Origin: an uncultured Nitrososphaerota archaeon | Lineage (GTDB): Archaea > Thermoproteota > Nitrososphaeria > Nitrososphaerales > Gagatemarchaeaceae | Direction: 5' to 3' | Assembly (NCBI GenBank): GCA_963718895.1 | Contig: CAVRAG010000008.1 | Coordinates: 1,184,001-1,248,000, forward strand | DNA: 64,000 nt | Shown: in pieces, positions 5,462-26,461 of the stretch | How positions within the stretch are numbered: the first letter of the stretch is position 1 | How the letters are laid out: each line of letters starts with the position of its first letter | Made by a program: the position numbers and the translations under genes | Notes under the pieces: generated by a model | Told to the model about the DNA's origin: nothing | The model's input: only the letters and a program-made list of their open reading frames with translations | Database searches by the model: none

Positions 5462-5556
5462 GATTAATAGTTTTGTCCGAACGGAACCTCTAGCCGTTTA
5501 ATCGAAGATGCAGAAAAGAGCTTTCGCCATGTATAGGGCTCATTGCGCCTCCGCCG
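5462..5556. repeat. Conserved ~95-bp intergenic element (GATTAATAGTTTTGTCCGAAC ... GG(C/T)TCATTGCGCCTCCGCCG)
   Basis: Similar copies at 32125-32225, 37877-37966 and 38447-38546. Confidence 0.75.
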
Positions 5557-8302: not shown

Positions 8303-8446
8303 GGGGGCGTAGCCTAGCCAGGTATGGCGACAGGCTCCAGTGGTCAAACTACTATAGGTTTGATGACACGTTCGCGTGGATGATTACCCAATTGGAGCGG
8401 CGAAGAAACCTGTAGGCCGCCGGTTCAAGTCCGGCCGCCCCCACCA
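8303..8446 (+). tRNA. tRNA-Trp(CCA) with long 37/38 intron containing box C/D-like motifs
   Basis: Acceptor GGGGGCG/CGCCCCC-ACCA; anticodon arm ACAGG-CT-CCA...CCTGT; T arm GCCGG-TTCAAGT-CCGGC; intron has TGATGA, GGATGA and TTGGAGC complementary to the anticodon region, as known for archaeal tRNA-Trp introns. Confidence 0.92.
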
Positions 8447-9846: not shown

Positions 9847-10932
9847 TTAAGTCTCATCAATGAAACCAAACTTCTTCCGTTCCTCGGTGAACTGGCCCTG
9901 TATCGCGGTTCTTTTTGCCTCGATAGCTGGATAGATATCTTGCTCTATTGCGTACCTGATCCACAGTCTCACCAATTCGTCATATCGGTTCTTCGCCTTC
10001 TTTGACCTAGTTCCGATCCGATAGGCGCCTGGAGCCTCCTCTTTGACAAAGCCAATTGCGAGCCCCATTCTCAATATTGCGTCTGTCTGTTTCTTGATCG
10101 CGATCTCCCCCGCATATCCAATTTCATTCTTCACAAGCTCCTCAAGATCGTCGGTTGTGAATATCCCCTCCTCCTTCCCTACATCTACGATTGTTAGAAT
10201 AGTCATCTTTGCAACTGGATGACTCTCTAGAAAGAAGGTCTTGAATTCATAACTCGTCTTGACATCCACCAATGCCCGATTCAATGCCTCGTCGGAATGC
10301 ATCATCGTTCTGCCTACAGGACCGTCTTCTCGTCCAGGTGCGAATAATCCCAGCTTCACATCAGAGTCCCTGAAATCAATCCCGCTCTGCCAGACTACCA
10401 CTCCACCACTCCTTCTCAATAGACACTTGCAAAGCCGATTTGCGTCTGCGAAGGACACGCCAAGTACGAACTCATCATTGACTTCCGCTGAATTAAGGTA
10501 ATTTGTTTGGAGATATCTCTGACTAGATCGAACTTTGTATATTCGCTCCTGCATCTGCTCGACGACTCGTCCTTCATCGCCGATGGAGCCCTTCGCATCA
10601 CCTATGATTGCAATTCCTTTGTCGGGGTTGAAGATCAGGAAATCAAGATTTGTGACGCCTAGCTCTAGGAGCGGCGATCCCCGGACGAAGTGGTATCCAA
10701 TCTTGGAAAGCGATTCGCTCTCTGTAAACGGGAAAATGCACACGTTGAGGGCGTTTCGATGCCACTTGTCGATCTCCAACCCCTCCAACTTTCCACGAGT
10801 CAGGTCCTTTTCCTTCTGTTCGAACTCCTCCTCAACTTCGGCGATAGCCCGTTCAATGGCTATTGTGTAGTTGTCCTGCAGTTCCTTTACCCTAAGATAC
10901 CTTACGAACTCGTCATCTAGCAACTGGCTCAC
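9847..10932 (-). CDS. Hypothetical protein, possible PD-(D/E)xK nuclease-like
   Basis: 361 aa; LDFLIF...IIGDAKG resembles a D...(D/E)xK motif; lower GC than surroundings. Confidence 0.5.
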   Translation of the reverse strand: MSQLLDDEFVRYLRVKELQDNYTIAIERAIAEVEEEFEQKEKDLTRGKLEGLEIDKWHRNALNVCIFPFTESESLSKIGYHFVRGSPLLELGVTNLDFLIFNPDKGIAIIGDAKGSIGDEGRVVEQMQERIYKVRSSQRYLQTNYLNSAEVNDEFVLGVSFADANRLCKCLLRRSGGVVVWQSGIDFRDSDVKLGLFAPGREDGPVGRTMMHSDEALNRALVDVKTSYEFKTFFLESHPVAKMTILTIVDVGKEEGIFTTDDLEELVKNEIGYAGEIAIKKQTDAILRMGLAIGFVKEEAPGAYRIGTRSKKAKNRYDELVRLWIRYAIEQDIYPAIEAKRTAIQGQFTEERKKFGFIDET

Positions 10933-12049
10933 TTAGTGTTTGCTCGCTGAACATCGTCAGGTGAGCGTCTCCGTCAACGTCCTCGGCTATCGTCTCGTAG
11001 AATCTTACAAAGGACTCGAACGTAGTCCTGTATTTCGGAATGAGAGCCAACTCGCCATTGTGCACGCTTAGACCGAACACTGTCCCCTTGCGGTCGTCGA
11101 CAACAGTTGCAGAGAATGATACTGCATCGTCGGAAACATAGGTATCGATGAATGAAAAGTCTGAGAACTCATCGGCTTCTTCATCTGACTTGCCCAAGTC
11201 AACTTCGTTCTTCGCCTCACCGAAGAGCATCTTCACGGTCTTGACGTCAAACTTGGCATTGGGCACCGTGATCTTCCCGGCAACCAGCGTTGGTACGATG
11301 ATCTGGTGCTGCGTCAGGCCGATAGTCCTTGTCGAAGTCTTGAATCTTCCAGATGTAATTCTGATCGTGGACAGTTCTTCGCTGATCGAACCGATTATGT
11401 CCAGCAGGATACTGATTGTACTCTCGTTGACATCTCTTATCAAGACCATGCCGTTTCTGTTCAATTGGATCTTGTCGCTCCCTATCCGAAAATCCATTCT
11501 TGTGGAGATGGTCCCATACATCAGTTGAGTCTCCTTCAGAACTTCAGAGGCGTCTTCTCCTGAGTAGCTCATTCTACGGTTATATTCTTGACGACCTATC
11601 TTCGCGATGGCCTCTGAGAATCTTGATCGTCTACTAATGAAGCTGTACATGGTTGCGCTGTATTTCGTCAAGACGCGATTCTTCAAGTTCTCGAACAGAG
11701 GCGGCGATATCCATGCTTCAGAAATCCCTCTCTTCTCTGTGACGAAGCGACGTAAGGTCTTCTCGTAATCCTCCTTCGTTGAACCGGTGAAACAGAGAAT
11801 CAGTCCTGGCTTCCACTCGTAGACGTAGTAATCGGCAGATCTCTCTTCGTCGGCTATTGTAAAATGCCAGACGTCACCCATCTTTTGAAGGCTGTGCTGC
11901 AGAAACAGGGACTGCCAGTCGTCATTAACATAGAGAAGGTATGACTTGAGCCACTTTCCCTCGCTCTCGGTTTCGAAAATCTCACCGGCGTTCTCTGAGA
12001 GATAATCAAGGAAAGAACGGAGTGAGTACTGAGAAGCCGGAATTCTCAA
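10913..12049 (-). CDS. Hypothetical protein, operonic with 9847-10932
   Basis: 378-aa ORF overlapping the next gene; TATA-like CTTTATAT upstream on the minus strand. Confidence 0.65.
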   Translation of the reverse strand: MRIPASQYSLRSFLDYLSENAGEIFETESEGKWLKSYLLYVNDDWQSLFLQHSLQKMGDVWHFTIADEERSADYYVYEWKPGLILCFTGSTKEDYEKTLRRFVTEKRGISEAWISPPLFENLKNRVLTKYSATMYSFISRRSRFSEAIAKIGRQEYNRRMSYSGEDASEVLKETQLMYGTISTRMDFRIGSDKIQLNRNGMVLIRDVNESTISILLDIIGSISEELSTIRITSGRFKTSTRTIGLTQHQIIVPTLVAGKITVPNAKFDVKTVKMLFGEAKNEVDLGKSDEEADEFSDFSFIDTYVSDDAVSFSATVVDDRKGTVFGLSVHNGELALIPKYRTTFESFVRFYETIAEDVDGDAHLTMFSEQTLSEPVAR

Positions 12050-12288
12050 AGCTTTTCGAAGTAATGAGGTTAAACGTGATATAAAGATATACAGTCTTTG
12101 TTGGCAATGCCTCTACATAACTAGAGAGGCACACCACGTTAAGCAAGGGCGGTAGTATAACGAATCACAGATATCACTCCGGTTGCGAAGAGCCCGGAAT
12201 GCACCCCCCATCACCATTAGACCTTTGGAAGTGCTCCGAATCGCAAGACTGTTTATATGCGAGCCCCTTTAGCGGAACATGACTTAGG

Positions 12289-13101
12289 ATGGGGGAGGAA
12301 CCTGACAGGTTCGGGGTAATGATTCGGAACAAGGAGAAGGGTGTGTTTGTAGACGTCAGTCCGGATCGCATTGTCCTCGGACCCCGCAATTCAGACAAGA
12401 AGATTGGTGAAGATGATCATGTCACCGTTGTTATGAACGGAGACCGCATAGATCAGGCGCATCGCAAGGTCGATGGCAGGGAGGTATGGCACCTTACCGG
12501 CGAAGCTCTTCAAGCTCATCTTGACAGCTTGTTAGCCAATGCGACAGAGCCGGTGGATGGAAGCGAATTCGTCGCTCCAGACACTTACATCATTTCAATA
12601 AGACGAGCTAAACTACTGTTCTCGGTCGTTACTCTCCCCTTCTCCGTCTTTTTGACCTTCTTCTGGAGGTTGTTCGCTCATATTGAGAAGTACGAGGATG
12701 AGAACGGACTAGATGCCCGAATTATCTTTAATCAGAGTAGAATCCAGCATCTCATCCAAAGCGCACAACTCCCTCTCTCTTTGCTCTCTAGAATAGTTCA
12801 GAAGGTACCCCCGGCGGCGTTCTTGAAGCCGATGACCTTAATCGCAAAGCGAGTTCTGGTGAATCCCCAAAAAGTCCAGAACCTCAAAGACGACATGCTG
12901 TTCGTCATATCGGAGAAACGTGTCGGGTTCGTCTCTCGGAGCGACGACGGCGACCTTAAGTTCACTTCGGTGGTCCCCCTTCTTGAGGCATACGAACGCC
13001 TCAATGCCAGTGTTCCTGTGTCCCTCGATGATATAGGGAATTTCGGGGCAGGATCGGAGATTAGGGTTAAGGGCAGCCGAGCTCCAACCTCGCTTGCATG
13101 A
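12289..13101 (+). CDS. Hypothetical protein
   Basis: 270-aa ORF with protein-like composition. Confidence 0.55.
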   Translation: MGEEPDRFGVMIRNKEKGVFVDVSPDRIVLGPRNSDKKIGEDDHVTVVMNGDRIDQAHRKVDGREVWHLTGEALQAHLDSLLANATEPVDGSEFVAPDTYIISIRRAKLLFSVVTLPFSVFLTFFWRLFAHIEKYEDENGLDARIIFNQSRIQHLIQSAQLPLSLLSRIVQKVPPAAFLKPMTLIAKRVLVNPQKVQNLKDDMLFVISEKRVGFVSRSDDGDLKFTSVVPLLEAYERLNASVPVSLDDIGNFGAGSEIRVKGSRAPTSLA

Positions 13102-13161
13102 CGAAGTTCAGATGCACGCGCTCCCCACGTAACGAGATATACGAGTCGAACCCACACGCCA

Positions 13162-13908
13162 GTGATGTCACCATCGGGCGAGGGAGAACCTGACAATGGT
13201 CCAAAGTCGGTCTTTGTTGATGATGAAATTGAATCGCAAGTCTTGCAGGTAATCAGAGGTGCAACAAAGTACATCACCTTCGTCACCCCGTACGTCGACT
13301 TGTGGATGCATCTAACAGACGCAATGCGCGATGCAATCGATAAGAGAGTTGACATCACATTCTTCCTACGCGAAGGCGAGAACCGGCAAAGGCCTGAGGA
13401 CCTGAAATGGCTCCGGCAAAACGTCAAAGTGTACGAAGTCCCAAACCTGCATGCCAAGATTTACCTTAACGAGACGACAGTTCTCGTTAGTTCCATGAAC
13501 ATCACAGAGTATTCGACCAGAAACTCGAAGGAGTTCGCAATGATAGTGAGGCGCCAAGGCGACTCGACCGTATTCAGAGATTACGTTTCTCGCCTGATTG
13601 GAAAAGCAGCAGTGACACAAACTACACGCCCAATACGAGACTACGTTTCGAGCTTAGTTGAAAAAGCCACCATAATCCAACCTTCACGTTCATTTGGACA
13701 CCACACTTCAGAAGATGGATACTGCATCCGATCTCGTGACAGGATTCCCTTCAATACGGAAAAGCCTCTTTGCGTCGACTGCTTCAGCAAGTGGAATAGG
13801 TATCACGACGAAGATTACGCCGAGAAGTTCTGCCATTCGTGTGGAAAGAGCGCGAGAACAAGCTTCGCCAAGCCCCTGTGCATAGCTTGTTGGAAGAAGT
13901 CGAACTGA
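13162..13908 (+). CDS. Phospholipase D-family (HKD) nuclease-like protein with C-terminal Zn fingers
   Basis: LHAKIYLNE...VSSMNIT; C-terminal KPLCVDC, CHSC and KPLCIAC. Confidence 0.8.
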   Translation: MMSPSGEGEPDNGPKSVFVDDEIESQVLQVIRGATKYITFVTPYVDLWMHLTDAMRDAIDKRVDITFFLREGENRQRPEDLKWLRQNVKVYEVPNLHAKIYLNETTVLVSSMNITEYSTRNSKEFAMIVRRQGDSTVFRDYVSRLIGKAAVTQTTRPIRDYVSSLVEKATIIQPSRSFGHHTSEDGYCIRSRDRIPFNTEKPLCVDCFSKWNRYHDEDYAEKFCHSCGKSARTSFAKPLCIACWKKSN

Positions 13909-14422
13909 GCTTATGGACGTCGAGACAGACACATGTTCGAAGACACTAAACCTCTCAAGAACATCGGTTCACCGGAGGACCCTGATGGCACGTTCGACCA
14001 GGCCAGGACCAGTTGCATGGCCGCTGGCAACGCCGCCCGCCCCGTCGTGCTCGAAGAGGAATGTTCACCGCGATAGCGTTCTCGCATGAGAGTCGTCTCG
14101 TGAAGCTTTAGAGCGGCATTGAAGAGTTCAGATTCTCGCTGAGAACAAATCCTTGCACTGAGATACGAAACTGAAGGCGGACTTCTAGGTGACCTTCCTT
14201 GATTAGCTTCGCCTCGCTACCTCCTTTTCACTGAAATCTGTCTGGACTCAATAGCCGAAGCGAGATTTCCACGGAAGCCAGAAGATGGTCAGGGGAGACG
14301 CCCATGAGAGCAAGCGCCTAGCCTGAACACGAAATGCAGGAACAATCGAGCGTCCCGTCAAGAACAAAAAGGAGAACTGAAAGTATTAAGGCGAGAAACC
14401 TCGTCTGCCCCCAATATCACAC

Positions 14423-16138
14423 ATGAAGATTCTGGCATTCTCCGATTACCGTGTTCAGGACATAGACCTTCTAATCCAATTCATCAAGAAGAGGAATATT
14501 CAGCCTGACTTGATTCTTTACGCCGGCGACGACATCGAGAGGTTCTCTCCCCTACCCAACTCTTCGCTCGACAACTTATTGCTGGAGCACAAGTCACTGC
14601 TCTTATCGGGCTTCAAAGGGAAGAAGCGAGGACAGGAGGTGTTCGTCGATCATATTTCGAACTGCGTACGTGGTTTTTGCCTTGAAGGCCCTCTTGAAGG
14701 GAGGCTTGATGAAGTGTTGGAAGCCAGGGACATCCACGGTTGCTATTTCGAGTGCGAGCCAGAGAATTGCATAAGAAAGACCGTTACCGATGGAGACTTG
14801 ACCGTCGGAATCATCTATGACCCTGAAGACAAGAGAAACCTCTTCGAGAATCTTGCTTCTCTCTCAAAATACGGACTTTGCGCTGTAATTGGAAATGATG
14901 ACTCCCCTTCAGTACGAGATTGCATCAGAGGGTTGAATGTGTACGACGTTCAGAAGGAAGCCCTGTCGCTGGGTGGATCGGTCGTAGTCGGCATAGAAGG
15001 CGCGGTCGATGACCCTAAGCGGATGACAGGGATAGGGTACACCCTATACGACGAAAAGACGCTCTCCAAGTACTTGGAAGCGGTAGAGAAAGAGGCCAAC
15101 GGGAGAAGACTGATTCTGTTATCCCACTGCCCGCCCTACCAAGTCCTCGATTTTGCACGAAGGTTTGGCATTCAGCACATAGGTTCAATCGCGCTTCGGG
15201 AGTTTGTGCTGGATGAATCAGAGCGCGTCCCTCTGATCGTGTGCGGCCATGCTCACCTAATGGGGGGACGAAACACTATGTTGGAGCAGACGATGGTGGT
15301 CAATGCGGCCTCACACGACGACATTGGAGCACCCGGCCGAATCGCGATTATCCAACTGGAAGAAAGCGTCTCAGTTGAGTGGCATCAGATTTACGGGTTG
15401 AGAAGCGTGTTCGGAATCGGGCCAGCAACAGAAGCGAGGCTCAAAGACGCGGGGATGGTGGGAGTCGAAGACATTGCGGTGACTCAGCCTTCAGACCTCG
15501 CCGCGCGAGCGGGTATGTCTCTAAACAGAGCATCGGGACTGTGTGTTCGGGCGAAGTCCATTGCCGATGGCAGAGCCATCCCGCTAACGGGAATCGAGTT
15601 CGACGACGCTCGAGGTATCTACCTCGACATTGAAACTGACTTGACTCGGTCCCTCGTCTGGTTGGTAGGGATCTATTCGCGCGAAAGAGACGAACTGACC
15701 CAAATTGTTGCCCGCACACCCGCTGAGGAAAGGAGTTTGCTCGAGGAATTTGTGAACAAGATGAGCGGATTCGACGGGAGAGTCTTCACCTTCTCAGGGA
15801 CGAGTTTTGATCAGCGGGTTTTGCTGGAAAGATTAGATGTCCACAATCTGCGCTTGTGTTCGCACCCGGAGTTCGTAGACCTCTTCAGAATCATCCAGCC
15901 CTCTGTCGCGTTGCCACTAAAGTCATACGGACTCAAATCGATTGCAGCCTACTTGGGATACATCTACAGACATCCAGATTTAGATGGAATCACCGTTGCA
16001 ATGCATTATCTAATCGACTACCAGAAGAATCGAGATTCCGGGCTCCTTAAGAGACTACTCGAATACAACGAGGATGACATTCGTTCGCTACCTTGGATTA
16101 TGGAACGAATAGCAGAATTGTCGCATAATGCTAAGTAA
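14423..16138 (+). CDS. Metallophosphoesterase + HhH + YprB/RNase H-like exonuclease fusion
   Basis: FSD, AGDD, GNDD, SHCPP, CGHAH; GIGPATEARL; YLDIET, SFD, YGLKSIA, YNEDD. Confidence 0.8.
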   Translation: MKILAFSDYRVQDIDLLIQFIKKRNIQPDLILYAGDDIERFSPLPNSSLDNLLLEHKSLLLSGFKGKKRGQEVFVDHISNCVRGFCLEGPLEGRLDEVLEARDIHGCYFECEPENCIRKTVTDGDLTVGIIYDPEDKRNLFENLASLSKYGLCAVIGNDDSPSVRDCIRGLNVYDVQKEALSLGGSVVVGIEGAVDDPKRMTGIGYTLYDEKTLSKYLEAVEKEANGRRLILLSHCPPYQVLDFARRFGIQHIGSIALREFVLDESERVPLIVCGHAHLMGGRNTMLEQTMVVNAASHDDIGAPGRIAIIQLEESVSVEWHQIYGLRSVFGIGPATEARLKDAGMVGVEDIAVTQPSDLAARAGMSLNRASGLCVRAKSIADGRAIPLTGIEFDDARGIYLDIETDLTRSLVWLVGIYSRERDELTQIVARTPAEERSLLEEFVNKMSGFDGRVFTFSGTSFDQRVLLERLDVHNLRLCSHPEFVDLFRIIQPSVALPLKSYGLKSIAAYLGYIYRHPDLDGITVAMHYLIDYQKNRDSGLLKRLLEYNEDDIRSLPWIMERIAELSHNAK

Positions 16139-16310
16139 GGTCTAAGGTCCAAATACGAATTCTATTTCAATTGGACTCGCTTCGAGGATCGAAGCGAGCA
16201 CTAAGGCTGAGAGCGCTGGAAAATCGTTCAAGAAAAGAAGAGAGGCGGATATTGAATACTTCAAACTCGTCTCTCGCCCGCTGAAGGCCCGCAAGGGAAG
16301 ATGGGGGCCC

Positions 16311-17192
16311 TTAACTCGAGTTCTGCGCCTGAACCCAGAAGAAGAACGTTCCATATTGATTGATGTTGATAGTCACCAAGTAGTAGGTCCCGGCCGAGAC
16401 TCCCGTCGTCACGGTTGATAGGTTGGTGGCAAGAGTGATGGTTGTGGTCGGACCACTCGCGATTACGTTTGGGCAAGACGTGCTTGTGCAGCCCCACGTG
16501 GCGGACGCCAGACTTTTCGGTTCTTCAATGCCATATTGATTCGTCAAATTATTCAGGTTGGCGGTAACGCCGTAGGTTGGATAGTTGTCGGAGCTGACAG
16601 AGATGATCATAGTCGCGCTTAGATTCCCTGAAATCGTAAGACTCGAAGAGGTTACAGCCGTAAGTGCTATCATGGGTGGAACCGTCGAAGTGTAGAATTG
16701 TTCCGTGTGGCTGAACCTGCCTGAAGCAACCGCAGCAACTGGGACGTTGATCGAATTCCCGGCTGGGAGCGTGATCTGTACTTCAAAATAGTATGTTTGT
16801 CCTGTGATTGGTAACCCCCATCCAGGGACGAAGTTGGGCGAGAAGCCTGCCTGGGGAAGAGTGAGATTCACTTCGTATGCGCTTCCTGCAGGGAGAACGA
16901 ACGTCGACGACTCTGCACCCAGAGAGGCGCAATCAGTGTAGTCAGGAGCGCACTCTTCCAGAGGAAGTATCGACTGAGTGGAGGTCTTGCCGTTGTTTGC
17001 GATATCGGCAACCAGATGACCTCCAGGCTCGATGAAGGCCGAGTTCACATGGAAATCGGACGAGGAGGGTCCACCAGGGCCCCCTATGCCAGCGCCCAAC
17101 TGTCCGGTTTCGTAGAAGTAAGCTGCCACTCCCACTACCAGAACGAGGACTACCACCACTAGACCCGCAATGACTCTCAACTCCGAAGGCAC
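16311..17192 (-). CDS. Membrane-anchored secreted protein
   Basis: N-terminal TM followed by Ser/Thr-rich beta-type sequence. Confidence 0.7.
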   Translation of the reverse strand: MPSELRVIAGLVVVVLVLVVGVAAYFYETGQLGAGIGGPGGPSSSDFHVNSAFIEPGGHLVADIANNGKTSTQSILPLEECAPDYTDCASLGAESSTFVLPAGSAYEVNLTLPQAGFSPNFVPGWGLPITGQTYYFEVQITLPAGNSINVPVAAVASGRFSHTEQFYTSTVPPMIALTAVTSSSLTISGNLSATMIISVSSDNYPTYGVTANLNNLTNQYGIEEPKSLASATWGCTSTSCPNVIASGPTTTITLATNLSTVTTGVSAGTYYLVTININQYGTFFFWVQAQNSS

Positions 17193-19023: not shown

Positions 19024-22000
19024 TTAACGGGCGAACTGCCTAGCCTCCTCGTTCAGCCTCCGGCAGCAGTACTCCCTCACGGTGTATTCTCTGATGCCGA
19101 GAGTCTCGGCAGCCTCCCGCTGAGAGACGGTCTTGGGCGAGATTGCCAGGGACGCCAGATAGACCGATCCTGCTGCGACGGTCCTGGGGTTGAAGCCGTT
19201 GGGCTCCGCTGCTGAGGCTACGAGCTCCTTCGCGCGCTCGAAGAGGGTCGTGAAGTACTCCTTCGGGTCTGCTTCTGACTTCCTCAGCCGCTCGGCAATC
19301 CTCTCGCTGGATTGCAGCCTGCCGATGGCGGCCTTCACGAAGTCATCCTTGCTGGGATGGGGGAGGTGCATCCCGGACTCGAGGCCTAACTTCAGCAGGT
19401 CGGACTTGCGGACCCTGTAGCCCGCGTCGGTGTAGGCCTTCAGGACCTCCCTGTGGCTGACGTGCACGACACCTGCTGCCCTGCAGGCGTAGAGCTGAGG
19501 TAAGAGTGCGCTGCCACGCCCTTCAAATCGGGCAGGAAACACGCACCCTCCCTCCCAAACCCGGCGTGATACTTTCGCATCACCGGGCTTTCACTCCTAC
19601 GTCTTCCGTCCTCTTCTTGTGCATTAGATGGATTGATTTCAGCTACCTTTCTTGAGGCAGCTTACTGTGGCATTTCGCGCACAATGTCTGAAGATTTTCG
19701 ACTCGGTGCACGACCTGCGGGTCGAAGACCATTCCTCTGGGGACACGTTCTATGTGGTGCGCCTGTAGTTTCTCCCGACTGCTGCACTGGGTACACTTCC
19801 ATCCATCCCTCTCAAACGTCAGAAGGCGGTTGGAGAGATAGGTTTCATCATTGTACTCGGGCGCAACCGGGTGGGCGTTGGGCGCATCTATGATTGGGTC
19901 GTCGGTTTTCTCTGAAATGCTGGTTGCCGTGTGGCTCTGGTTGGTGTACGGATTCCTGATTGACCTGTATTTCCAGATGAGTTTATGGTTCATGGAGGTG
20001 TGCATGCTCGTATTGGAGGTCATCCTGAAGAGTTCAACCTTGATGTCGCCCCTCTGAATGACCACCCTTCCGTTCGTGCACACGGTTGACAGGTACTTCC
20101 CGACACTGATGTGGTACTTCCTTCGGTACCACTGCCGAAACAAGCGTTCGGCGAGGAAGTCTCCTGTCCTGAATTGTTGGTAGGCATTTACTGCTTTGTA
20201 GTAGTTGGCCCATCCCTTCAAGACCCTGTTCATCGCCGCAACCTTCGTCGGGGGGTCATCGCTTATCGCAGCTGTCCCTAACATCGCTTGCAGCTTGTTC
20301 TTGAGACGGGAAAGATTTCGCTGTGTTGGTCGTATTCTGACACAACTGTAGTATCCCATGTTCACCCGCCGGATGTGGAAACCGAGGAAGTCGAATCCAT
20401 TCTCCAGCGGAATGAGTCTTGTCTTCTCTGTTGACAGGTTCAGATTGAGTCTCTCCTTAAAGAAGCTCCGTATGCTGTTCATGACTGCGGTGGCTCCCGC
20501 TTGGGTGCCTTTCACACTCAAGATGAAGTCATCCGCATACCTGAACAGTACACAACTGGCCTGTTCCGTTTTCTGTTGTTGTACTCTCTGCGTCCTTGTG
20601 AGCTTGCCCCAGTATTCATCCCAGAACTGGTCAAACTCGTTGAGGTAGATGTTGGCTAGCAATGGCGAAAGGACACCACCTTGCGGGGTTCCTTTCCGGA
20701 CTTGTACCTGAATGCCATCTTCGATGACGGGTGCCTTAAGGAACTGACGAATCAGCCACAGGATGCTAGTGTCTGCTATCCTTTTCTTGACAGCTCGCAT
20801 TAGTATCTCATGGTCGATGTTGTCAAAGCACCCTTCGATGTCTCCTTCTATGACCCATTCGTATCTTCGGACGTTGTCCCCGTACCGATACATCGGCAAT
20901 ACACACTCCAACGTGCTTCTCTCAGGTCGGAAGCCATTCGAGTTTGGCAGGAAGTCGGCCTCGAAGATTGGTTCAAGAACCATCTTCAAGACCATCTGCA
21001 CGACCCGATCTCTTATCGTTGGGATGCCTATTGGGCGCCTCCCTCCGTTAGCCTTCGGAATGTACTTCCTAAGCACCGGAGAGGGGTGATATGTTCGCTG
21101 TTTCAGCTCTGTACGCAGTTCTTCGACAAATCTGGCCCTAGCAGACGGCTCGTGCAGGTCTGCCCCGCACACTCCGTCCACACCTGAGGTCTTCGCGCCA
21201 GCGTTGTCTAGAACCGCTTCGAGAGCCGAGTTGAGCCACTCTCTTTTCCAGAGTAGCGAATGGAGGTTGTAGAATTGCTTGCTTGGTCGTAGTGTTGCGA
21301 TTCTTGCGAGTCCACTCTGGATGCAGAGAATGGCTCTGCCTTCCCTCTTGCGGGGGACTACCGATGATTGCTCATCGGTTTTGTTGTTTGAGCCCATTCT
21401 CTCACCTCCTTTTGTGTTTCGTGGACTGAATCCATCCTTTGCACAGTTCGGACTTCGGATTTCGGACTAGAGTCCTTCCCCACAGGTCGGTAATTGGCCG
21501 ACATTCAGGGTACTATGACTCCTCGGAGCCAACCCAGTCAAATCAGACGCAGCCGTCCTATCCACTCGCCCTTTATCGACGAGAGGCAGACCGGGTTGGG
21601 TCTCACGTTCTGTAAGGAGCACGTCTGTAGACGGATTTAGGCACCCACCAGTATTCGGGAAGATTCCGCCACGCCGGGCGGTTCTCGCCTTCCTAAAGGA
21701 AGGGGATTTGCCATTCCTCTCACTGCACAGGAATGGTAACCCTCCATGTCGTGCGCCCTTCTATCCTAGTGTCTTCGCACGACCGGCCTACTATCTGTTG
21801 TGGGTTCCTTATCGTTGCCATGTCCGTCCTTAGGTCGCCGTCTCGGGAACCTAGGCTGTTCCCTTATCGGCTGTCTATGTCTGGGGCTAGCCCCATGCTG
21901 GGCTCTGCTCAGAGCCCAACATGCCAGACGACTTTCACCTTCGGGAGTCCAAACCTTACGGCTGTGGACGCCCAGCCCTACCTACTGTAGTGTGGGATGA

Positions 22001-25000
22001 TAATTCCGGAACGCTTTCAATTCGTAGTGGTAGCGATGGTTGTGGTGTGTGGCTTCCACTTGTTTGATGCAAAGGCTATTGTGACTGCAGACACAAGGAC
22101 TGCAATTCCTATGTAATTCAGTGTGTAGTTGGCTGGAGCTGTATCCTTGGTTCGAGGCAGGATTGTACTGTGTGGCTGTTACTGATGGATTGATGGCACC
22201 AAAGATGAGAAGTATGGCTCCTATGATGCCTAGTATGAGTGCCAGTCCCAAGATAGTCTGTTTGGTCATCTTGTCGTACCTGCACCTATGGGACTGTTCA
22301 TGTCTTAAGTACTTTTGTCCGAACGGAAATGTTCATAGTGGTCGGTGGTTGACCCTACAGTCCTTCGGGCATTGCTCCTTACAGCGGGCCTCGGTTACTT
22401 TTCAGTAACAGGGGCTTTCGTGACGCGCCAGCGAGTAGGCCGATATCGAGGGGATCGTGGCCTCGTAGGACTCCCTTTGGGGGAGGAGCCTCCTCGCCGT
22501 GATGTCGGCAGCCTGCGCGATGCTCTTGGGGAGGGACAGCCTCTCGGCTATCCTGTTCGTCAGCATCGAGCACGTCGGCATCGGTCCGCCTCGCCCGACG
22601 ATGTTCGGCATCAGCTTCGCCCACCCGAAGGCGGGGCCCTTCAGAGAGGAGGCGCTCTCCGTGTCCGCGACTATGTACGAGCCAAGGGGCTCGCTCTTGC
22701 TCACGGATGGCGCCGTCGACCCGTCCTCGCGCGTGTAGTCCGCCCTGCTCACGACGATCCCGCAGAAGGAGCACGTGAGCTCCGTTCGTTCCTCTCCCGC
22801 GTAGACCTGAGGTAAGAGTGCGCCGCCATGCTCAAAATATCGAGCAGGAAGCACGCACCCTCCCTCCCAAACCCGGCGTGATACTTTCGCATCACCGGGC
22901 TTTCACCCCTACGTCCTCCGTCCTCTTCTTGTGCATTGGATGGATGATTCCGATTCTCCCAGACTTGTCGCTTCTTCGGTATGGGTCGCGAATATTGTTC
23001 TTACTCCGCAAGGTTCTTATGTTACGGATGAGGTTGTTCCGAGTTGAAATGAAGTGGATTCAGCTGGCTCCGGTAGTTGGCTTCGTTTTGACGCTTGCTT
23101 CCTTGTTGTATGTGTGGAATCCCTATACTTGGGGTGTTACAGAGTTAAGCTACGGTTATCCTTTGCCGTGGCTTACCAGCTTTGCCTCTGTAGCGGGTAC
23201 ACATTGGGCAATGAATGTTGTGGGTCTTGCCGTCGACTTCTTGGTCTGGCTTGCTATATCTGCTGCAGGAATTTTCTTGTTGTCCTTGCGCAGTGCAAGA
23301 GAATTGTTGTTCCAGAGGTCAGCTTGGTCTAGGCTGTTTTAGATGGCATTTTGCGCATAGGGTCTGTAAGTTCGCAATCCTGTGCACAACTTCCGGGTCG
23401 AATATTCCTTTGGGCACTGGTTCGACATGATGCGCCTGAAGTTGCTCCCGACTGCCGCACCGAGTACACCTCCATCCATCCCTCTCAAACGCTAGTAGGC
23501 GGTTGGAGGAATAGATTTCACCGTCGTACGCAGGTGCAAGCGGTTGGATGTTGGGCGCATCTATGATTGGGTCGTCGTTTTCCTCTGGAATGCCGGTTGC
23601 CTTATGATCCTGGCTGATGTATGGATTCCTGATTGACCTGTATCGCCAGAGGAGCTCATGATTCCTTATGGTGTGCGTGCTCGTGCTGGATGCCATCCGG
23701 AAAAGTTCGGCTTTTACACCCCGCCTCTGGACGACCACTTTGCCATTACTGAGGACTTGCGCTAGGAACTTCCGGACGCTTACCTTGTACTTGCGACAGT
23801 ACCACTTGCAGAACAGGCGTTCGGCCAGAAAGTCCCCGGTTCTGAATTGCTGGTACGAATTGACTGACGTGTAGTAGTTGGCCCATCCCCTCAAGACTCT
23901 GTTCAGGGCTGCAATTTTCATGTGCGGCTCGTCGCGCGACGCGGTGGGCCCGAGCATGGATTGCAATTTGTTCCTGAGGCGGTATAGGTTCCTCTGTGTA
24001 GGTCGTATTCTGACGCACTCGCCGTAGTCTAGGTGCACCCGCTGGATGTGGAATCCAAGAAAATTGAATCCCTCTTCCAGACGGACGACCCTGGTCTTGT
24101 CTGTGGATAGGTCCAGCCTGAGCTTGCTCTTGAAGAAGCTCCTGATGCTGTCCATGACGGCGTTGACCCCCTCTTCAGTGCCTCTCGCACTTAGGATGAA
24201 GTCATCAGCGTACCTGAACAGCACACAGTTGGCCTGTCCGTGTCTCTGGCGTTTCTTTCTTTGATCTGCTGTGAGTCTGCCCCAGTTTTCATACCAGAAC
24301 TGGTCAAACTTGTTGAGGTAGATGTTGGCGAGCAGTGGTGAAAGAACACCTCCTTGTGGTGTTCCCTTGCGGGTTTTTGTCCGGATGCCTTCGTCGATGA
24401 CGGGTGCCTTGAGGAACCGACGAATCAGCCACAGGATACTGTTGTCGGCTATCCTCTTCTGGACAGCTTCCATCAGGATTCCGTGGTCGATGTTGTCGAA
24501 GCACCCTTCGATGTCTCCCTCGATGACCCATTGGTAGAGGTTGTGGCTGTTCCCGTAGCGGTACATTGGCAATACGCACTCCAGCGTGCTTCGCTCAGGT
24601 CTGAAGCCGTTGGAATTGGGCAGGAAGTCGGCCTCGAAGATTGGTTCGAGAACCATCTTCAAGACCATCTGCACCACCCTATCCCTTATCGTTGGAATGC
24701 CTATTGGCCGCTCCTTCCCGTTGGCTTTTGGAATATACTTCCTGAGCACTGGGGAGGGATGGTAGGTTCGTTGCTTCAGCTCCGTCCGCAGTTCCTCGAC
24801 GAATCTGGCCCTAGCAGACGGTTCGTGCAGGTCAGCCCCGCACACTCCGTCCACGCCTGAGGTCTTCGCGCCAGCGTTGTCTAAGACTGCTTCAAGAGCT
24901 GTTTGTAGCCACTCTCTTCTCCAGAGTAGTGAGTGTAGGTTGTGGAATTGCTTGTCTTTCCTTCTTGTTGCTGATATGGCGAGTCCACTCTGGATATGGA

Positions 25001-25865
25001 GAATGACTCTGCCTTCGTCCTTGCGGACTACTGGACTCAGCGATTGCTCACCGAGCTTATTGTTTAAGTCCATTCTCTCACCTCCTTTTTTGTGTTTCGT
25101 GGACTGAATCCATCCTTTGCACAGTTCGGACTTCGGATTTCGGGCTAGAGTCCTTCCCCGCAGGTCGGTAATTAGCCGACGTTCAGGGTACTATGACTCC
25201 TCGGAGCCAACCCGGTCAAATCGGACGCAGCTGTCCTATCCACTCGCCCTTTATCGACGAGAGGCAGACCGAATTGGGTCTCACGTTCTGCAGGGAGCAC
25301 ATCTACAGACAGGTTTAGGCACCCACCAGTGACCGAGAGAGCCCCGGCACGTCGGCTGGTTCTCGCCTTCCTGCGGAAGGGGATTTGCCACACTATGGTC
25401 TCGTAAAGTGTGGTGGTTCTCTATACCATGCGCGCCTCGTCCTATCCTAGCGTCTTCGCATGGCGCAGGGACATTCTGTTGTGGGTTCCTTATCGTTGCC
25501 TTGCCTGTCCTCAGGTCGCCGCCTCGAATGCCTAGGCTGCACTCTTTGCGGCTGTCTATGTCTGGGGCTAGCCCCATGCCGGACTCTGCTCAGAGTCCAA
25601 CACGCCAGACGACTTTCACCTTCGGGAGTCCTGACCTCACGGTCGAGGACGCCCAGCCCTACCAGCTGCTTTCGCAGCCCTTCGGGCATTGCTCCTTACA
25701 GCGGGGAAGTGGCTTATTCAGCTACTTCCTTTCGTGACGCGCGAGGCCTTCCCTGCACTCCGGGCACCTGCCCAGGATGCTGTACTCCTCGTACGCGGCC
25801 AGCTCTCGTCCGTCCACTCTTCTGAATTCCTTGAACCCCTTGCATGTTTTTCGGTCTCCTGCCAT
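19024..25865 (-). CDS. TFB/TFIIB-like transcription factor split into three exons: 25865-25743, 22806-22429, 19494-19024 (~323 aa spliced; start codon tentative)
   Basis: Joined exons give the Zn ribbon CPEC-REGL|VYAGEERTELT-CSFC, cyclin repeat 1 (IAERLSLPKSI...ISAYSL|LYACR) and repeat 2 (NPRTVAAGSVYLA...VSQREAAETLGIREYTVR); all exon lengths are multiples of 3. Confidence 0.85.
19643..21397 (-). CDS. ltrA: Group II intron-encoded RT/maturase with C-terminal HNH endonuclease
   Basis: GVDG, RPIGIPTIRDRVVQ, GFRP, GDIEGCFDNI, GTPQGGVLSPLLANIYL, RYADD, GWANYY, CxxC..HH..N..CxxCH; SD GGAGGTG. Confidence 0.95.
   Translation of the reverse strand: MGSNNKTDEQSSVVPRKREGRAILCIQSGLARIATLRPSKQFYNLHSLLWKREWLNSALEAVLDNAGAKTSGVDGVCGADLHEPSARARFVEELRTELKQRTYHPSPVLRKYIPKANGGRRPIGIPTIRDRVVQMVLKMVLEPIFEADFLPNSNGFRPERSTLECVLPMYRYGDNVRRYEWVIEGDIEGCFDNIDHEILMRAVKKRIADTSILWLIRQFLKAPVIEDGIQVQVRKGTPQGGVLSPLLANIYLNEFDQFWDEYWGKLTRTQRVQQQKTEQASCVLFRYADDFILSVKGTQAGATAVMNSIRSFFKERLNLNLSTEKTRLIPLENGFDFLGFHIRRVNMGYYSCVRIRPTQRNLSRLKNKLQAMLGTAAISDDPPTKVAAMNRVLKGWANYYKAVNAYQQFRTGDFLAERLFRQWYRRKYHISVGKYLSTVCTNGRVVIQRGDIKVELFRMTSNTSMHTSMNHKLIWKYRSIRNPYTNQSHTATSISEKTDDPIIDAPNAHPVAPEYNDETYLSNRLLTFERDGWKCTQCSSREKLQAHHIERVPRGMVFDPQVVHRVENLQTLCAKCHSKLPQER
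21982..22269 (-). CDS. Small membrane protein carried inside domain I of intron A (probably frameshifted near 22120)
   Basis: N-terminal TM ILGLALILGIIGAILLIFGAI; second TM (YIGIAVLVSAVTIAF) in an alternate frame; absent from intron B. Confidence 0.55.
   Translation of the reverse strand: MTKQTILGLALILGIIGAILLIFGAINPSVTATQYNPASNQGYSSSQLHTELHRNCSPCVCSHNSLCIKQVEATHHNHRYHYELKAFRNYHPTLQ
23049..23342 (+). CDS. Small two-TM membrane protein carried antisense inside domain IV of intron B
   Basis: 97-aa ORF: TM - YGYPLPWL - TM; region absent from intron A. Confidence 0.65.
   Translation: MKWIQLAPVVGFVLTLASLLYVWNPYTWGVTELSYGYPLPWLTSFASVAGTHWAMNVVGLAVDFLVWLAISAAGIFLLSLRSARELLFQRSAWSRLF
23319..25073 (-). 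CDS. ltrA: Group II intron-encoded RT/maturase with HNH endonuclease (sister of 19643-21397)
   Basis: Same RT motifs, YADD, domain X and HNH; same 584-aa length. Confidence 0.95.
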   Translation of the reverse strand: MDLNNKLGEQSLSPVVRKDEGRVILHIQSGLAISATRRKDKQFHNLHSLLWRREWLQTALEAVLDNAGAKTSGVDGVCGADLHEPSARARFVEELRTELKQRTYHPSPVLRKYIPKANGKERPIGIPTIRDRVVQMVLKMVLEPIFEADFLPNSNGFRPERSTLECVLPMYRYGNSHNLYQWVIEGDIEGCFDNIDHGILMEAVQKRIADNSILWLIRRFLKAPVIDEGIRTKTRKGTPQGGVLSPLLANIYLNKFDQFWYENWGRLTADQRKKRQRHGQANCVLFRYADDFILSARGTEEGVNAVMDSIRSFFKSKLRLDLSTDKTRVVRLEEGFNFLGFHIQRVHLDYGECVRIRPTQRNLYRLRNKLQSMLGPTASRDEPHMKIAALNRVLRGWANYYTSVNSYQQFRTGDFLAERLFCKWYCRKYKVSVRKFLAQVLSNGKVVVQRRGVKAELFRMASSTSTHTIRNHELLWRYRSIRNPYISQDHKATGIPEENDDPIIDAPNIQPLAPAYDGEIYSSNRLLAFERDGWRCTRCGSREQLQAHHVEPVPKGIFDPEVVHRIANLQTLCAKCHLKQPRPS

Positions 25866-26461
25866 GCTTCGTCCTGGCACGCTCCGGTGGTTCAACCGGC
25901 GTAGGCGCTGCCAGCTTCTCGTTCTCGAATCCTTCAGGAAGGGATGGCGGACAGCAGAGGCTTCACTTGGTCCCCGTCCGGGATCGCATGGGCGGATAAT
26001 AATGGGCCCAATGTGATCTGTCTAGCCGGTCCTCAAGTCGCAGCTTCGTTTCTGCCCAGTGGTTGGGTAGAAACTATTGGATATGGCTGCGGCCCGGACC
26101 GGTCAAGGAACGGGGGTGAAGCTTCCGCTTCCGTCACTCTCCTGAAGGCCGATGGAGGAGAAGTTCTTTCGCGTCCTTCTGGGTGGACTTATGGCATCGA
26201 GTGTGCCCAGAGGACGGCCGTTGGGCCCGGATACTTCCGTCCGGGTGGAGAACGGTCAACCAAAGACTGCGCTCATCTTCATGTCGAAAAGTCGGATGAG
26301 CCGTCACCGGGTATCCCGTTCTCTCCCGCAGACGATTGGCCGACGAAGGCGTTCAGTAGCCTACGCTGGTGCCAAGGTCACAGGTTCATACCGAAATCAG
26401 AGAGAGAAAGACGAAATACGGCAGCAAAGGCTCGTTCAGTATTTAACACGGGCACGGGGAT

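Follow-up and report, generated by a model that had tools for sequence, protein, structure and literature searches.

A stretch of 64,000 nucleotides (nt) from an uncultured Nitrososphaerota archaeon of the Gagatemarchaeaceae (assembly GCA_963718895.1, contig CAVRAG010000008.1, positions 1,184,001 to 1,248,000 of the forward strand), called here the window, contains a gene interrupted by two group II introns, A and B, each of which holds, in addition to the gene for its own intron-encoded protein (IEP), a small extra gene at a different position of the intron RNA (Table 1). To our knowledge, group II introns are usually described as carrying only their own reverse transcriptase (RT). We consider it likely, from comparisons of related sequences, that these are retro-mobile introns with passenger genes lodged in loops that lie outside the ribozyme core, and that the passengers (the cargo) are moved with the intron. 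The window alone is insufficient for such a reading, as each cargo-bearing intron is single-copy there. The idea of introns acting as cargo vectors, put forward in an earlier note made from the letters of the window, is now backed by a pair of cargo-bearing copies in a genome of the same genus, by a third gene in the slot used by B, by a relative with both slots empty, and by four relics.

The movement of cargo with the intron is documented in G412, a single-contig genome of the same genus, in which two copies of the intron are identical over 3315 nt, with 0 mismatches, and the flanks of the two copies are unrelated on both sides. In both copies an insert of 743 nt occupies the domain I hairpin that is filled in A; it contains a promoter-like motif and a sense open reading frame (ORF) of 188 amino acids (aa), and the inserts of G412 and A share the stem and the last eight bases, ATCCCACA before CTACAG. 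The unit copied in G412 is exactly the intron with its cargo. The loci are at C1:2039797-2044542 (L183) and C1:1880867-1885612 (L179); copy 1 is found just past the 3' end of a gene, to which it is antisense, and the product of that gene has a TFB cyclin repeat-like C-terminus. Pairing of exon-binding site 1 (EBS1) with the 5' flank was not evident, by eye, at either site.

IEP-bearing copies were counted, using a domain IV start pattern, in 23 genomes of the genus, i.e., the genome of the window and 22 others. Six copies were found, in four of the genomes, and when their slots were tabulated, as the earlier note had proposed doing for homologous introns, five of the six were seen to hold cargo, always at one or other of two slots, the loop that caps an early hairpin of domain I or the domain IV loop right after the IEP stop codon. 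One example of the latter is L005, of genome G440, in which approximately 740 nt follow the IEP stop, with the promoter-like motif and a sense ORF of 207 aa, encoding a protein that has a helix at its N-terminus, a stretch rich in Thr and Ser, and a domain containing Cys. Six paralogues of this protein are encoded in the window genome; the best match among them, at 75%, also has the motif upstream. The contig of L005 ends 165 nt into the intron and does not cover its domain I slot. The example of an empty element is L004, on a 3.5-kb contig of Candidatus Gagatemarchaeum stordalenia (G424), whose IEP gene is 94% identical to that of B and in which both slots are empty, with a 4-nt hairpin loop and a 13-nt spacer after the IEP. 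The IEP genes of A, B, G412, and L005 differ from each other to a similar extent (76-81% identity in DNA). The introns measure 2570 nt in L004, 2934 in A, 2936 in B, 3314 in G412, and approximately 3308 in L005, if its missing 5' end is B-like. The nearly equal lengths of A and B pointed out in the earlier note are reproduced, and the size constraint offered there as one explanation fails against copies of 2570 and 3314 nt. The cargo increments are near 365 and 740 nt in both slots, possibly by chance, with five elements to judge from.

In a scan of species genomes the close IEP relatives were L004 (94%) and L005 (75%) only, the rest being bacterial and at most 48% identical; four IEP relatives, at 56-61%, were found on metagenome contigs, none on viral contigs, and the IEP of B had no match beyond its own genome among 400 sampled genomes of the class. 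Other, more distant RT genes, at 36-48% identity to the IEP of B, are present in two further genomes of the genus, at G437:C3:995570-996319 and on contigs C336 and C194 of G423.

Relics of the intron are a further source of evidence. Four truncated relics with domain I cargo were recognized, of which one is located in the genome of the window, on contig C4 (Table 1), and retains a promoter and an intact cargo ORF of 163 aa, with the rest of the intron gone. The stop codon of the gene upstream of this relic falls in the intron remnant. The C4-type cargo is also found in G412 (at 838 kb, with an intron 5' end) and on contig C55 of G424. Among the three C4-type relics, DNA identity is 89-93% and the ORFs, of 161-164 aa, are intact. 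The flanks of two of them, C4 of the window genome (G000) and the 838-kb relic of G412, are unrelated by both blastn and tblastx. The relic in G439 is of a further type, possessing an intron 5' end and an insert of approximately 390 nt, which contains the motif plus an ORF, approximately 95 aa long, that starts with an N-terminal helix. Contigs of other samples add to this variety. One, from X2, a DNA run of a permafrost metagenome, contains 75 nt from the 5' end of an A-like intron, up to 22355, and then the first 30 letters of the C4 cargo, with 1 mismatch. Another, an RNA contig from X18, parts from A precisely at 21990, with 28 letters unlike it. Altogether, seven slot contents have been seen, those of A, G412, the C4 type, G439, and the X18 variant (partial) in domain I, and those of B and L005 in domain IV. 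Four runs were compared in this way, all as contigs and not as reads, and one of them, X1, covers both inserts without differences and may be the source sample.

As to the introns themselves, A and B belong to a single group II intron lineage of a soil/peat Nitrososphaeria genus and have diverged, being approximately 79% identical over 2.3 kb in pairwise alignment, with the same termini (5' GCGCGTCACGAAAG, 3' CTTACCTCAG). The Rfam model RF00029 of domains V/VI matches over its full length on the minus strand at 19494-19592 and 22807-22904, with 57.3 and 57.0 bits (the gathering score being 40), and also matches in L004, L005, and the members L084-L090. Both IEP ORFs, of 584 aa each, are free of stops and encode RT, maturase X, and HNH endonuclease domains, the solved structure closest to the IEP of B being 6me0_C, a maturase reverse transcriptase. 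The IEP ORF is flanked by GGATGGAT and ATCCATC, the two stem strands of domain IV. With their domains V/VI, intact RT-X-HNH proteins, and exon-binding sites that match the insertion sites, both introns look like complete retro-elements. The boundary consensus of group II introns is 5' GUGYG and 3' AY. The introns of the window do not conform to it, starting with GCGCG and ending with CAG; GCGCGTCACGA is common to all members of this intron family examined.

The borders of the introns are fixed by the identical block of the G412 copies and by contigs. One DNA contig of X2 joins 22805 to 25742, skipping 2936 nt, and a second links 19469 and 22430 through 26 letters of different sequence, which means that there are alleles lacking B and alleles lacking A, and that the borders given for B are exact. 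These empty-site alleles and the paired G412 copies are indirect signs of splicing and retrohoming activity. An RNA contig of X19 stops at 22430 and continues with 41 unlike letters, and may represent either a spliced message or the intron-less allele of a relative; it was not used.

The gene hosting the introns is tentatively TFB-like. Its three exons, of 153, 378, and 471 nt, are all in phase 0, and conceptual splicing produces an ORF of 333 aa with no stops, this length and the CPEC and CxxC motifs fitting TFB. The label is tentative because all of the family matches are far below the curated cut-offs (Pfam Zn_Ribbon_TF, E 0.022; TFIIB, E 0.018; NCBIfam NF001658, E 5e-4, with a score of 19 bits against a cut-off of 384), the protein having been scanned in pieces and not as one spliced protein. 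Intron B, the first in the gene, splits the zinc-ribbon motif (CPECREGL / VYAGEE...CSFCG). In A, EBS2 (GTAGGCCG at 21791) pairs with the exon sequence CGGCCTAC at 8 of 8 positions, and EBS1 (CAGTGA at 21725) pairs with TCGCTG at 6 of 6. In B, EBS2 (TCCCTGC at 25471) pairs with the exon sequence GCAGGGA at 7 of 7, so that the interactions of EBS2 with its intron-binding site (IBS2) differ between A and B in a compensatory fashion, at homologous positions of domain I. For EBS1 of B, the sequence GAGACC, at the position homologous to EBS1 of A, pairs at 5 of 6 positions, as read by eye; a script ranked first GAGGTC at 25638 (6 of 6) and two other sites, none of them at the homologous position.

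The domain I slot is seen empty in B, as a hairpin of GGCTGC-GAAA-GCAGCT, and the GAAA-capped hairpin reported previously at 25666-25677 lies within it. In other members of the family the loop of the same hairpin is of 4 nt (L004, L085), approximately 11 nt (L084), or approximately 42 nt (L087), and the hairpin arms covary among family members, although MAFFT alignment of the hairpin columns is poor. In A, the CTGTAG/CTACAG stem described in the earlier note closes the 364-nt insert exactly as stated there. Domain I has other, lineage-specific expansions in more distant members, a hairpin of 54 nt in L084 (2076-2130) and L087 (2057-2110), and approximately 120 nt in the first domain I hairpin of L085 (1735-1860). 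No ORFs were noticed by eye in any of these expansions, no scan having been made.

The cargo gene of A belongs to a genus-restricted family of two-helix membrane proteins, in agreement with the membrane-protein ORF of the earlier note, with the correction that this ORF, of 95 aa (21982-22269 as it stands), represents a frameshifted copy of a protein of 78-80 aa. The N-terminal 45 residues are read from 22269 in one frame, and the C-terminal part (PANYTLNYIGIA...TTN) is in another, open from 22178 to 22017, with the stop at 22019-22017; in a tblastn search of the genome, the paralogue at C8:626146-626379 is matched twice, in two frames, at 51% and 47% identity. The sequence indicates that this gene is recently frameshifted, unless the assembly is wrong there; the contig comparison lists no variant at the frameshift region, and assembly error is neither shown nor excluded by it. 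Matches of the cargo protein in genomes of the genus are found in G427 (E 4e-20), G424, and G412, along with a copy on C10 of the own genome, and in one search the family was present in 4 of the 11 other same-genus genomes, and 29 genomes from other genera contained no member of it. A full HMMER scan of the library recovered the intact homologues P0006 (80 aa) and P0007 (78 aa). Compared with every one of these relatives, the copy in A is divided over two frames. A word-index protein search with the 78-aa paralogue gave no match, and no Pfam family was found for the cargo protein of A.

The domain IV slot is the spacer between the IEP stop (23319-23321 in B) and the ATCCATCC strand, from 22945 in B, which pairs with GGATGGAT. 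Its length is 373 nt in B, as against 9 in A and 13 in L004, and in L084-L090, in which the IEP match ends 49-73 nt before domain V, the post-IEP insert is absent; the net gain in B is approximately 360-365 nt. These comparisons of spacer and loop with relatives demonstrate that both inserts are gains relative to the family. The extra nucleotides after the IEP of B, their antisense membrane-protein ORF, and the mere few nucleotides at that place in A had all been noticed before and are found as described, with one correction: the ORF of the B cargo, which is intact, probably starts at ATG 23019 and not at GTG 22818. The first ten residues from ATG 23019 fit the pattern of the homologue P0003. 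The protein has two membrane helices and the motif YGYPLPWLTSF, conserved in its homologues, and the last seven codons and the stop of the gene overlap the 3' end of the IEP gene in antisense. Among 5.8 billion proteins three homologues, all metagenomic, were found, P0001 (70%, E 3e-32), P0002 (59%), and P0003 (58%), and the similarity to P0001 stops at 23318, the edge of the insert. Pfam has no family for this protein, and the protein atlas produced clusters of hypothetical proteins only. In the 400 genomes of the class only weak matches were found (E 2e-5 to 7e-4), none of these in the sample's 11 genomes of the same family. Both cargo genes thus have homologues, and the inserts are not the singletons that the earlier note had named as grounds for dismissal. 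A contig of X2 leaves B exactly at 22945; a new cargo was considered and rejected, as the end of this contig resembles that of an insert-less copy with a diverged IEP end.

The promoter-like motif reported in A recurs in the genome. The motif stretch in insert A begins GTTCGGACAAAAGTAC..., from 22324 downward, and TTCGGACAAA occurs at 37 sites in the genome of 3.1 Mb, the form of approximately 22 nt being GTTCGGACAAA[AG][CG]T[AG]T[TA]AATCA. Sites in the window are at 5481, 28443, 35359, 38466, and 39460, all on the minus strand, with 32 others in the genome, and the ORFs with an initial membrane helix nearly always follow the motif at 20-120 nt. An ORF of at least 50 aa starts 20-140 nt downstream of 35 of the 37 sites, and 32 of these 35 ORFs have a membrane-helix-like start, versus 58 of 688 ORFs at 1000 random positions, suggesting that the motif may be the promoter (or operator) of a large set of genes for membrane or secreted proteins. 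Among the cargoes, those of A, G412, L005, the C4-type relics, and G439 have the motif upstream.

Table 1. Coordinates of the introns, their host gene, and their cargo (positions in the window, unless a contig is given)
Feature	Position	Strand	Description
Host gene, weakly TFB-like	19024..25895	-	exons 25895-25743, 22806-22429, 19494-19024
Group II intron A	19495..22428	-	2934 nt; between exons 2 and 3 of host gene
Group II intron B	22807..25742	-	2936 nt; between exons 1 and 2 of host gene
IEP of intron A	19643..21397	-	584 aa; Pfam RVT_1 1e-38, GIIM 3e-9, HNH 2e-4
IEP of intron B	23319..25073	-	584 aa; Pfam RVT_1 3e-39, GIIM 1e-9, HNH 2e-7
Cargo insert of A	21991..22354	-	364 nt inside domain I hairpin; arms ACTGTAG 22361-22355, CTACAGT 21990-21984
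Cargo gene of A	22017..22269	-	frameshifted copy of 78-80-aa two-helix membrane protein
Promoter-like motif of A cargo gene	22302..22324	-	GTTCGGACAAAAGTACTTAAGAC
Domain I hairpin of B, empty cargo slot	25664..25679	-	GGCTGC-GAAA-GCAGCT
Cargo insert of B	22946..23318	-	373 nt, from IEP stop to 3' strand of domain IV stem
Cargo gene of B	23019..23342	+	antisense to intron; 107 aa from ATG 23019 (97 aa from ATG 23049)
Intron relic, own genome	C4:246132-246908	-	approximately 28 nt of domain I, cargo, 57 nt of domain I

The mechanism that we propose would involve the two slots, in both of which foreign DNA may be tolerated because they project from the ribozyme core. Copies of the intron differ in the content of these slots, in the form of host-type genes for small membrane or membrane-anchored proteins, with the sense-strand cargoes bringing along the promoter motif that characterizes genes of this kind in the window genome. 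Being part of the intron RNA, the cargo would be reverse-transcribed and inserted together with the moving intron, as it has been in G412 and, we infer, in A and B, and later decay of the intron may leave the cargo gene behind at its new locus. The shared ends of the different domain I inserts, whose leaders start with TCAAC, TCAAAC, or TCAAGAAC and of which those of A and G412 have their last eight bases in common, suggest one old insertion, in which the gene would have been exchanged later by DNA recombination, with the shared promoter motif as a possible exchange point. The similar distances between the IEP genes would fit such a history.

A number of observations weigh against the introns being gene carriers. 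A and B are each single-copy in this genome, leaving their own movement with cargo to be judged from a relative, and the cargo gene of A is frameshifted and would now specify a truncated product at best. Even in the relics, where the ORFs are intact, the ratio of nonsynonymous to synonymous substitution rates (dN/dS) is 0.48-0.73, at 27-44 changes per pair, pointing to weak constraint. The relics were found with a pattern that included the cargo-type 3' stem arm, and are therefore useless for estimating the frequency of cargo. The comparison set is small, with 0 further copies in the 400 sampled genomes of the class, and the identity of the G412 copies could be inflated by assembly polishing, though their sites are distinct. 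When the 5' part was folded in isolation, the minimum-energy structures of A and G412 lacked the long-range closing stem, and the notion of looped-out inserts therefore rests on the conserved complementary arms and not on energy prediction. Finally, the contigs of X2, X18, and X19 cover neither of the insert cores, being uninformative on absence or silence of the cargo, and the lack of RNA contigs (X18, X19) over these cores likewise says nothing on silence.

It may be argued that the inserts are incidental junk, i.e., host DNA that entered the loops of immobile introns via illegitimate recombination, with no vector role. Such an origin would agree with the single-copy status of A and B, with the frameshift in A, with the absence of cargo in the closely related L004, and with the lack of evidence for cargo expression in what are contigs only, but we regard it as unlikely, in view of the two identical cargo-bearing copies at unrelated sites in G412, of a single cargo type that accompanies intron remnants in three genomes, the flanks being unrelated in the pair that can be compared, of the restriction of cargo to the same two slots in five of the six IEP-bearing copies, and of the intact IEPs and domain V/VI regions in both A and B. 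Of somewhat lower probability, and decidedly improbable in our judgment, is that the promoter-gene modules are themselves mobile cassettes, inserted site-specifically by a recombinase, into the hairpin and behind the IEP stop, the intron serving merely as a landing pad. The domain I slot does house different genes between similar ends, from the leaders noted above to the 3' end ATCCCACA beside the same stem in A and G412, and contigs in other samples leave A exactly at the insert borders, 22355 and 21990. However, the insert ends possess neither inverted repeats nor target duplications beyond the intron's own stem, no recombinase gene is found in or beside the introns, free-standing members of the cargo family (at 626 kb of C8 and at C10:28985) lack the insert ends, and so does the cargo of B.

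It is very improbable, in turn, that the inserts serve the intron itself, with the sense promoter in domain I of A and G412 driving the RT gene independently and the small ORF being secondary. In both A and G412 the motif is located upstream of the IEP and on the same strand, and no runs of five or more T were seen in the cargo trailers inspected, by eye and not counted by script, such runs being the usual terminator signal in Archaea; one of the G412 copies (copy 1) is also antisense beside its neighboring gene. Neither the antisense cargo of B nor the cargo of L005, downstream of the IEP, can drive the IEP, however, and cargo ORFs are intact in relics that have lost the IEP altogether.

Other candidate explanations were rejected on more specific grounds. 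A twintron was rejected, as there is no further Rfam match in 21991-22354 or 22946-23318 and the insert ORFs have no RT domain, and a known RNA family was likewise rejected in the absence of an Rfam match in the inserts. As to a miniature inverted-repeat transposable element or an insertion sequence, insert A is bounded by no inverted repeat other than the hairpin stem of the intron, and insert B by none at all. Near-identical DNA copies of the inserts are not found in the genome, the one match to insert A, at 66%, being the paralogue at 626 kb of C8. Capture of a processed mRNA was rejected in view of the inclusion of the promoter motif upstream of the gene, and a fixed intron size in view of the range of lengths given above.

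Among known systems are the mobile group II introns of bacteria and archaea with an RT-X-D-En protein, such as those of Methanosarcina. A and B resemble mobile introns of the RT-X-D-En type in their domains V/VI, in the RT, maturase, and HNH domains encoded in domain IV, in EBS/IBS targeting, and in multiple copies at different sites, and are unlike them in the 5' GCGCG, the Nitrososphaeria host, and the extra non-IEP gene in domain I or after the IEP. The LAGLIDADG proteins of some group II introns are mobility enzymes of their intron, and some fungal mitochondrial group I introns house rps3. In both cases, as in A and B, an intron houses a non-RT gene, but unlike in the LAGLIDADG introns, here ordinary host-type genes for membrane proteins are added to an intact RT. 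Twintrons likewise contain extra sequence within an intron domain, which may need tolerating or removal for folding, according to part of the review of variant forms (Zimmerly and Semper, 2015; PMC4424553), whose catalogue, in that part, has no gene-carrying class. The inserts of A and B differ in having no second domain V, RT, or intron ends, and in being protein genes, with a host promoter in A. The closest likeness in function is to engineered Ll.LtrB targetrons, in which foreign genes in domain IV are copied with the intron, B and L005 using the equivalent position. Targetron cargo sits in domain IVb and lowers insertion efficiency, as described in part of PMC8524655, and, unlike it, the cargo reported here is natural, of up to 743 nt, and also uses the domain I hairpin (A, G412), a site not seen for targetrons in that part of the source. 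Full-text searches of the literature yielded cargo for engineered targetrons only, and no account of natural cargo in a group II intron was met with. RTs are said to be scarce in archaea of the TACK superphylum (Thaumarchaeota, Aigarchaeota, Crenarchaeota, and Korarchaeota) in part of PMC8632793, whose supplementary tables might list Nitrososphaeria introns, and the word "intron" is absent from the main text of the paper on Gagatemarchaeaceae genomes (PMC10640624).

More broadly, there is a possibility, still somewhat short of an even chance, that the introns of this genus are natural gene-delivery vehicles with two defined slots, which would pick up and exchange promoter-bearing genes from the membrane and secreted-protein set of the host, copy them to new loci by reverse transcription, and decay, with the gene remaining as a new resident copy. 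If true, genes in Archaea could be duplicated and dispersed by way of RNA, with introns moving host genes of 360-740 nt, one cargo-bearing form having been copied intact recently, and there would be a mechanism for the spread of a membrane/secreted-protein gene family in soil Nitrososphaeria. Such introns would also provide a natural precedent for cargo in the domain I hairpin besides domain IV, a second cargo site of possible use in gene-targeting vectors. The location of the introns is itself of significance, being inside a protein-coding (weakly TFB-like) gene of an archaeal group without such introns in the 400 sampled genomes.

Two other features of the window may be mentioned. One is a tRNA match of 141 nt, versus a model of 71 nt, at 8303-8443 of the plus strand, which is probably an intron-containing tRNA gene. 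Another is the region of 10000-17000, with a G+C content of 0.48-0.54 versus approximately 0.58-0.60 around it, which may be an island of foreign DNA.

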